Made by a program: the position numbers and the translations under genes. A model generated the notes under the pieces. The model did no database searches. It saw nothing but the letters and a program-made list of their open reading frames with translations, and was not told where the DNA came from. From the NCBI RefSeq assembly GCF_003334815.1, contig NZ_QOWO01000090.1: DNA of 1,979 bases, one strand, 5' to 3'. Every line of letters starts with the position of its first letter. Position 1 is the stretch's first letter. This DNA is from Escherichia coli (GTDB taxonomy: Bacteria; Pseudomonadota; Gammaproteobacteria; Enterobacterales; Enterobacteriaceae). Shown piece by piece: positions 1 to 810 of this stretch.

Positions 1-810
1 AACCAGATGGACCCGGTGTACACGCCGGCGCGAAAAATCCACCTGTACCACTGCGACCATCGCGGCCTGCCGCTGGCGCTTGTCAGCACGGAAGGGGCAA
101 CAGAATGGTGCGCAGAATACGATGAATGGGGCAACCTGCTGAATGAAGAGAACCCGCATCAGCTGCAGCAGCTTATCCGCCTGCCGGGGCAGCAGTATGA
201 TGAGGAGTCCGGCCTGTATTACAACCGCCACCGCTATTATGACCCGCTGCAGGGGAGGTATATCACTCAGGATCCGATTGGGCTGAAGGGGGGATGGAAT
301 TTTTATCAGTATCCGCTGAATCCGGTTCAGTATATAGATTCAATGGGACTGGCATCAAAATATGGACACTTAAATAATGGCGGATATGGAGCGAGACCCA
401 ACAAACCGCCTACGCCCGATCCAAGTAAATTGCCGGACATAGCGAAACAATTAAGACTGCCATATCCTATTGACCAGGCCAGTAGTGCGCCTAATGTTTT
501 CAAAACATTCTTCAGAGCATTAAGCCCTTACGACTACACACTGTATTGCAGGAAGTGGGTAAAACCAAATCTGACTTGTACGCCACAGGATGATTCCCAG
601 TATCCAGGGATGGATACAAAGACAGCAAGTGATTACCTGCCACAGACAAATTGGCCAACAACTCAATTACCACCAGGATATACTTGTGCAGAACCCTATT
701 TATTCCCAGACATTAATAAACCCGATGGGCCAGCAACAGCAGGGATAGATGATTTGGGTGAAATTTTAGCTAAGATGAAACAGAGAACATCGAGAGGAAT
801 AAGAAAATGA
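1..810 (+). CDS. Rhs-family polymorphic toxin, 3' portion (5'-partial; gene begins upstream of the window). Core end is 1-351, variable C-terminal tip is 352-807, stop TGA is 808-810.
   Basis: Frame 1 is open from base 1; the ATG at 7 is an internal Met, not the true start. The translation ends in a typical Rhs core terminus (YDEWGNLL...[45 protein letters not shown]) with the DPxGL-(17 aa)-DxxGL boundary motif, followed by an unrelated 152-aa extension. GC content by eye falls from high-50s percent to about 40 percent at position 352. Confidence 0.9.
352..807 (+). other. Variable Rhs C-terminal tip (putative toxin domain, about 152 aa, unassigned family)
   Basis: Begins immediately after DSMGL (ends at nt 351). 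AT-rich relative to the core. Pro/Tyr/Thr-rich, with 3 Cys (residues 181, 191 and 227 of the track ORF). No nuclease, deaminase or ADP-ribosyltransferase motif recognisable by eye. Confidence 0.6.
794..798 (+). promoter_or_regulatory. Ribosome-binding site for the downstream immunity ORF
   Basis: GAGGA lies 8 nt upstream of the ATG at 807, inside the 3' end of the toxin CDS. Confidence 0.45.

Follow-up and report, generated by a model that had tools for sequence, protein, structure and literature searches.

What does the last part of the Escherichia coli RhsC protein do to another cell, and in which compartment would it do it? The question comes from 1979 bases of E. coli DNA (the window, by which is meant here the whole stretch analysed), in which a frame on the + strand is open from base 1 to a TGA at 808–810. 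Bases 1–351 (+ strand) are the 3′ part of an Rhs core (Pfam RHS, PF03527, over ORF residues 11–47, E 7.7e-15), and the motifs RYYDP, DPIGL and DSMGL succeed each other in that order ahead of the first residue of what is termed here the tip. A preliminary description had placed the tip at 352–807, 152 amino acids directly after DSMGL (337–351), and had characterized it as rich in Pro, Tyr and Thr with three Cys; both the extent and the composition are borne out, with 21 Pro (13.8%), 13 Thr, 10 Tyr, 3 Cys and a single, non-conserved His. The DSMGL variant of the boundary occurs in homologs too, and GC content is 0.56 in the core, drops to 0.43 over the tip and is 0.37 for the following gene, ybfC, as expected for an Rhs core/tip junction. 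We lean towards reading the tip and YbfC as the toxin and the immunity protein with which the polymorphic-toxin locus of E. coli RhsC ends, the tip being an enzyme-like toxin that would act on the envelope from the periplasm.

The tip family and the search for a known fold

Could the tip be a chance reading frame? A HMMER scan of 1.84 billion representative proteins gave 28 relatives, 22 of them below 1e-10, and a word-indexed search with profile re-search of 5.8 billion proteins returned the same set and no new architectures. Nearly all of these 28 representative clusters are clear Rhs tips or tip fragments, and relatives with enough sequence either follow an Rhs DPxGL-type motif or are short orphan fragments. 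(A repeat protein, P0049, matched at E 1.4e-4; the match is weak and looks spurious.) Identity to the E. coli tip is 68–76% in sequences from Salmonella, Phytobacter and enteric metagenomes, and 29–46% in those from Acidovorax, Paracidovorax, Ralstonia and other metagenomes; the named hosts are E. coli, Shigella, Salmonella (mostly subsp. salamae), Citrobacter, Phytobacter, Acidovorax, Paracidovorax and Ralstonia. With its frame conserved across Salmonella, Phytobacter, Acidovorax, Paracidovorax, Ralstonia and metagenomes, the tip is not a chance ORF, and in other genera it is joined to differing Rhs cores. Tip cores at 100% and 98% amino acid identity to that of E. coli are also present on 1.4–2.4 kb scaffolds of a ‘Flavobacterium psychrophilum’ MAG and a ‘Candidatus Nanosynbacter’ MAG (L010, 284–631, and L011, 682–1029); it is all but certain that these copies are E. 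coli contaminants, wrongly binned, of the species-representative genome set.

Only about residues 46–152 of the tip (some 105 amino acids) are conserved. Residues 1–45 (352–486, + strand) are a Pro-rich variable linker that is not alignable beyond the enterobacterial clade, residues 46–125 (487–726, + strand) are the conserved core with the invariant and near-invariant columns of both alignments made (A1 and A2), and residues 126–152 with the TGA (727–810, + strand) comprise an A.TAG.DD..E motif, a cationic amphipathic helix and an RK end. The earlier emphasis on proline is right for the tip overall, but most of the prolines are in the linker, which is non-conserved and modelled at low confidence, and not in the conserved domain. 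The family signature reads PxD...SPYDYxxYCxKW...C...D..PG.D.K...DY.P....P.GY.C.EPY.FPE....G.A.AG.DD..E, followed by the basic tail with its RK end. Invariant residues in an 11-sequence core alignment include S58, P59, Y62, Y65, C66, W69, C76, D94, P107, G109, C112, P115, F118, A130 and D134, with Y60, D61, P97, R151 and K152 present in at least 90% of its sequences, and P107, C112, A130 and D134 stay invariant when all 19 sequences, fragments included, are considered. Exactly three Cys are present in every core sequence and a conserved His in none. The Cys codons in the window are at 547–549 (Cys66), 577–579 (Cys76) and 685–687 (Cys112), and those of three Asp at 532–534 (Asp61), 631–633 (Asp94) and 751–753 (Asp134), all on the + strand. 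The last two residues (151–152, window 802–807) are dibasic across the family, mostly RK with RR, IK or LR in a few members, and such conservation of the final residues of a toxin is an unusual feature.

Profile and structure searches, which the preliminary description had proposed, brought no known toxin into view. Pfam had no match to the tip even at E 10, irrespective of whether the whole ORF, the core sequence or 11 family members singly were used; NCBIfam and PADLOC had none, and sequence and profile searches of the PDB gave nothing better than E 0.37. The best PDB matches of tip and YbfC, at E 0.37–2 (C1s CCP modules, PCPE-1, ERK2 and candidapepsin), were rejected as chance; the profile match at E 0.37, to the CCP/sushi module of complement C1s, spans the CCP1–CCP2 junction and follows a Cys/aromatic pattern, with three Cys in the tip versus the four of the sushi pattern. 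An AlphaFold2 model of the tip has a mean pLDDT of 62, with about 80 for residues 61–120 and below 50 for 1–14 and 27–51; it has three short strands forming one sheet, plus helices, one of them predicted at 129–149, and Foldseek with this model against AFDB50 retrieved only the tip's own family. Signatures of nucleases, deaminases, ARTs, RNases and peptidases were absent from the tip (Pfam, NCBIfam, PADLOC and a motif check), as were detectable instances of a Cys-His dyad, GxSxG, the HxKxxxxD lipase motif or a lysozyme-like or NlpC/P60 fold, and no metal-binding motif is conserved. The remark that the tip has no recognizable catalytic motif thus stands after the Pfam, NCBIfam, PADLOC and PDB searches, the single His being non-conserved, and its candidacy as an undescribed effector gains support from a conserved frame that matches no known toxin family or fold. 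An in-silico study of EHEC found the RhsC tip to weakly resemble VipE (I-TASSER, TM 0.57) and its partner to have no motif (PMC7216683); the likeness is weak and is not accepted here as evidence.

How new is the family? The Rhs-CT/RhsI architecture is textbook, whereas the tip and YbfC each appear, from Pfam, NCBIfam, the PDB, AFDB and the searchable literature, to be a small undescribed family. Our literature search found no paper characterizing YbfO (the K-12 counterpart of the tip-bearing frame) or YbfC, and no report of growth inhibition by the tip or of protection by YbfC. The tip family may correspond to one of the STox families left unnamed or ‘Not determined’ in a Salmonella survey (PMC12994826), whose STox table is without sequences and in which an accession look-up was negative, or to one of the PT families. 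As unassigned Rhs tips are common, the tip would not astonish a specialist.

A partner with a predicted export signal and the probable site of action

The presumed cognate immunity gene, ybfC (807–1376, + strand, 189 amino acids), starts with an ATG that overlaps the rhs TGA as ATGA. A YbfC-like gene is next after the tip in all 12 loci compared (E. coli, Phytobacter, S. salamae, Acidovorax, Ralstonia and seven metagenome or draft-genome contigs) and encodes 188–207 amino acids, one copy being cut by a contig end. Its start overlaps the tip stop or is within a few bases of it in 11 of these, and is 27 bases downstream in the other (L019); stop-codon overlap is the usual arrangement. YbfC-like partners are also present in Kluyvera, Pseudocitrobacter and E. 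albertii. Additional copies occur: in one locus (L017, 3001–4976) a tandem pair of YbfC-like genes (3735–4301 and 4404–4976) comes after an orphan tip, and the main Rhs protein upstream has a glycine-rich hydrophobic tip that resembles a glycine-zipper membrane toxin. In a Ralstonia MAG (L014) a second, N-terminally truncated YbfC-like ORF (2698–3075) is about 1.5 kb downstream of the cognate copy and adjoins a small PAAR-like gene (3113–3379), which suggests that spare immunity copies accumulate.

YbfC begins with a predicted Sec-type signal peptide (807–863, + strand, with cleavage between VIA and D), by which it would be exported. Though distant homologs are down to 21–31% identical to E. 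coli YbfC, all 12 have a basic n-region and a hydrophobic h-region at the N-terminus, and the 11 complete ones all have small residues at −3 and −1. The only hydrophobic segment of YbfC is at residues 3–23, the mature part being without another, and C30 and C175 are invariant in a seven-sequence alignment. Neither sequence nor profile searches matched YbfC to anything in Pfam, NCBIfam, PADLOC or the PDB. In an AlphaFold2 model of the tip fused to YbfC by a (GGGGS)6 linker (11 paired sequences) the YbfC part is beta-rich with pLDDT 80–90, a result that bears on its fold and not on an interface, and Foldseek of the fused model against the PDB gave only non-significant Ig-like noise.

Where a T6SS immunity protein is localized generally reports the site of action of its effector (PMC12669606), and there are periplasmic T6SS effectors that need the DsbA of the target cell (PMC5792426). 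Because its partner is predicted to be exported, is probably disulfide-bonded and is strictly paired with it, we hold with some confidence that the periplasm is where the tip acts. Of the results obtained here, this strict pairing with a partner that is predicted to be exported, and is probably disulfide-bonded, tells the most.

We infer a course of events along the following lines. Packed in the Rhs shell, the tip would be released when the aspartyl protease of the core cuts after DSMGL, and would be delivered to neighbouring Gram-negative cells, most likely on a T6SS VgrG spike. Its three conserved Cys would be oxidized in the target periplasm to give one disulfide and one free thiol, the ∼105-residue domain would damage an envelope component, and the cationic amphipathic C-terminal helix would hold the tip at the anionic membrane surface. 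YbfC, Sec-exported to the periplasm of the producer or a sibling and disulfide-bonded there, would bind the tip and block it. As to chemistry and substrate one can but guess, and the best guess is a small hydrolase-type enzyme that would use Asp61, Asp94 and Asp134, with peptidoglycan or a lipid-linked envelope precursor being its substrate.

Tentatively, and as a guess, we favour an enzyme with peptidoglycan or a lipid-linked precursor as its substrate over a binder or a membrane-surface agent. Few molecules are delivered per T6SS firing, and for this reason a catalytic toxin is the more attractive. Against the enzyme, the domain seems small for one and an odd number of Cys is unusual. With neither a conserved His nor a conserved metal-binding motif in the tip, no standard hydrolase chemistry can be named, and the want of a conserved His makes it unlikely that the tip works as a thiol peptidase or amidase in the way of Tae, NlpC/P60 or Ldt. 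That the tip is a new enzyme fold with no catalytic His, Asp/Cys-based and hitting a periplasm-exposed envelope component that no characterized interbacterial toxin attacks, is a bolder proposal and a doubtful one; if true, it would reveal a new vulnerable step of Gram-negative envelope biogenesis and provide functions for K-12 ybfO and ybfC. A tip that proved to belong, as a diverged member, to one of the known classes of envelope hydrolase would be an ordinary addition to the catalogue.

The alternative that survives best, though it is unlikely, keeps the periplasm and dispenses with catalysis: a disulfide-stabilized core would bind an essential envelope target stoichiometrically (a lipid-linked pyrophosphate or a periplasmic protein, for example), or the C-terminal helix would perturb the inner membrane. 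The very small size of the domain, about 105 amino acids, suits it, as do the want of a recognizable catalytic motif or conserved His, the predicted export of the immunity protein, and the conserved cationic amphipathic helix with its RK end. In most tip homologs the C-terminal segment is amphipathic and cationic, with a hydrophobic moment above that of shuffled sequence and a net charge of +1 to +3 over the last 25 residues. However, the entire core carries a net charge close to neutral (−1 to +3), and the tip has no glycine-zipper and no membrane-spanning hydrophobic segment, the maximum 19-residue Kyte-Doolittle mean being 0.14, so that a helical pore is unlikely. The scarcity of delivered molecules disfavours stoichiometric toxins in general, and YbfC appears to be a soluble, exported protein, in contrast to the membrane-embedded immunity protein of the pore former Ssp4 (PMC12669606). 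The helical pore-former class (Tse4, Ssp6, Tse5-CT and Ssp4) was considered and set aside on the same hydropathy maximum and on the lack in YbfC of a membrane segment past the signal peptide; Ssp4 was also rejected as a DsbA-dependent periplasmic analogue of the tip, being all-alpha with a membrane immunity protein (PMC12669606).

The rhsC locus and a proposed route of delivery

The window is the E. coli RhsC locus. Among the E. coli chromosomes that match all 1979 bp of it at 100% identity are those of O26 and O103 STEC, and in the 100%-matching chromosomes the order is the 3′ end of rhs, ybfC and then a transposase pseudogene of the ISAs1 family (H-repeat), with rhs annotated as ‘RHS element core protein’ or ‘RHS repeat-associated core domain-containing protein’. 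In strain E2865, where ybfA and ybgA flank the locus, a full-length RhsC of 1399 aa has the tip as its C-terminus; the 1399-aa RhsC of O26-type E. coli bears the identical tip. The rhsCR primer of the EHEC paper, TAGGCGGTTTGTTGGGTCTC (PMC7216683), is the reverse complement of window 393–412, from which it follows that RhsC of EDL933 bears this tip; a table in that paper gives the rhsC locus as z5014 in places and as z0847 elsewhere. In K-12 MG1655 the tip is on an orphan fragment, ybfO (annotated as a pseudogene), that is behind rhsC-ybfB and is followed by ybfC. Window bases 1–1638 do not differ from K-12 ybfO-ybfC, so that K-12 has the very same tip and YbfC proteins; divergence begins at base 1639, in the transposase remnant. 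A tblastn search of plasmids yielded E. coli records only, three of them chromosome-sized, one of 280 kb and one of 10 kb.

Between ybfC and the transposase remnant is a very AT-rich intergenic stretch (1377–1601, GC 0.29). Rfam found nothing above background in the window, with no match in 1377–1601, and a promoter and terminator scan of the window, that stretch included, gave sites no more frequent than expected from shuffling. The ISAs1-family (H-repeat) transposase gene starts with an ATG at 1602, continues past the window end at 1979 and is a pseudogene with an internal stop in the identical genomes; an in-frame TAA is at 1653–1655, where K-12 ybfQ has CAA.

Is the tip then an evolutionary relic, inactive, displaced and kept by linkage, with ybfC retained as an orphan immunity gene or for another role? 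The K-12 copy, on a promoterless fragment annotated as a pseudogene, might be so read, as might the many copies annotated as partial ‘RHS repeat-associated core domain’ fragments and the ISAs1 pseudogene that adjoins the locus. Yet tip and ybfC DNA is present, at a cut-off of at least 95% DNA identity, in 3518 of 5426 complete E. coli genomes (∼65%), as a single copy and with the tip frame intact; the tip is fused to full-length Rhs in O26-type E. coli, Phytobacter and Acidovorax; and motifs and partner gene are kept down to about 35% identity in two proteobacterial classes, all of which makes a relic improbable. The module occurs on full-length Rhs and also, displaced, as an orphan that follows another tip, which is how Rhs tip turnover usually looks.

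The proposed T6SS route of delivery is suggested by the relatives. Directly upstream of the orthologous 1383-aa rhs in Phytobacter (L012) is vgrG (TIGR03361, E 6e-181), one metagenome locus (L004) has the tip module beside VgrG (Gp5_C), DUF2169 and PAAR-like genes, and in Ralstonia a PAAR-like gene is near the module. In E. coli neither the window nor the neighbourhood of rhsC has a T6SS gene, and at the N-terminus of RhsC DUF6531 is present and no significant PAAR motif is seen. One study reported that the EHEC T6SS does not kill bacteria (Wan et al. 2017, as cited in PMC7216683).

Comparison with characterized systems

The module is like the Rhs-CT/RhsI modules of Enterobacteriaceae, such as those of Dickeya dadantii (RhsA and RhsB) and Salmonella (main and orphan), in having a YD-repeat core, a DPxGL-type motif and an unrelated tip of lower GC content (PMC3150448), and shares with such modules a small, translationally coupled downstream gene, full-length and displaced orphan copies, and vgrG linkage in relatives. 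It differs from them in that the tip is without a known toxin domain and the boundary is DSMGL instead of DPxGL. Characterized RhsI proteins are cytoplasmic; YbfC, unlike them, carries a predicted Sec signal peptide. The literature on Rhs is largely one of nuclease, RNase and deaminase tips (PMC6730261), from which a periplasmic site of action would set this tip apart. A cytoplasmic target (nucleic acid or translation), with the YbfC N-terminal stretch being an anchor or an irrelevance, would accord with most characterized Rhs tips being nucleases or other cytoplasm-acting enzymes (PMC6730261, PMC3150448), with a basic tail that could bind nucleic acid and with one database name, ‘putative deoxyribonuclease RhsC’ (a name that is inherited), but is very improbable in view of the signal-like N-terminus that all 12 YbfC homologs keep in spite of their divergence, the cleavage-site-like residues of the 11 complete ones, the conserved Cys in both tip and YbfC that fit an oxidizing compartment, and a tip with no nuclease, deaminase or ART signature.

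For a tip that acts in the periplasm, the nearer parallels are the periplasmic T6SS pairs (Tae/Tai amidases, Tge/Tgi muramidases, Tle/Tli lipases and Tlde1/Tldi1), with which it has in common a partner predicted to be exported; unlike the Tae, Tge, Tle and Tlde1 effectors it is fused to Rhs instead of being a cargo effector, and their catalytic motifs and folds are undetected in it. Its conserved Cys are compatible with oxidation in the target periplasm, as with the DsbA-dependent Ssp2 and Ssp4 (PMC5792426). Tse5 of Pseudomonas aeruginosa and other Rhs-encapsulated toxins target the cell envelope and not nucleic acid (PMC10684867), and like Tse5 the tip is Rhs-borne with a predicted envelope target; unlike Tse5-CT, a hydrophobic glycine-zipper pore former, it has no hydrophobic segment, and the two are not similar in sequence. 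PT4 and PT6 are short, previously unannotated C-terminal toxin domains that are toxic only when directed to the periplasm (Levy lab, 10.1101/2021.10.19.465003). Both are absent from the homology matches of the tip and are set apart from it by description, PT4 being T5SS-linked (ESPR and POTRA domains) with a representative annotated as an adhesin, and PT6 being represented by an 85-aa Moraxella protein.

Rhs tips have proved to yield new antibacterial activities, and a periplasmic site of action, as predicted here, is unusual for Rhs toxins; knowledge of what the tip targets could bring to light a weakness of the Gram-negative envelope that is new. The tip module is very common in E. coli, and the protein-identical K-12 ybfO and ybfC are both uncharacterized. 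Since K-12 carries the presumed immunity gene, a genetic test of the pair is easy. A separate candidate toxin-immunity pair came to light in Salmonella enterica subsp. salamae (L020, 1294–2489), where the orphan Rhs module that comes next downstream bears a tip faintly matching phospholipase A2 (PF09056), followed by an ankyrin-repeat protein.
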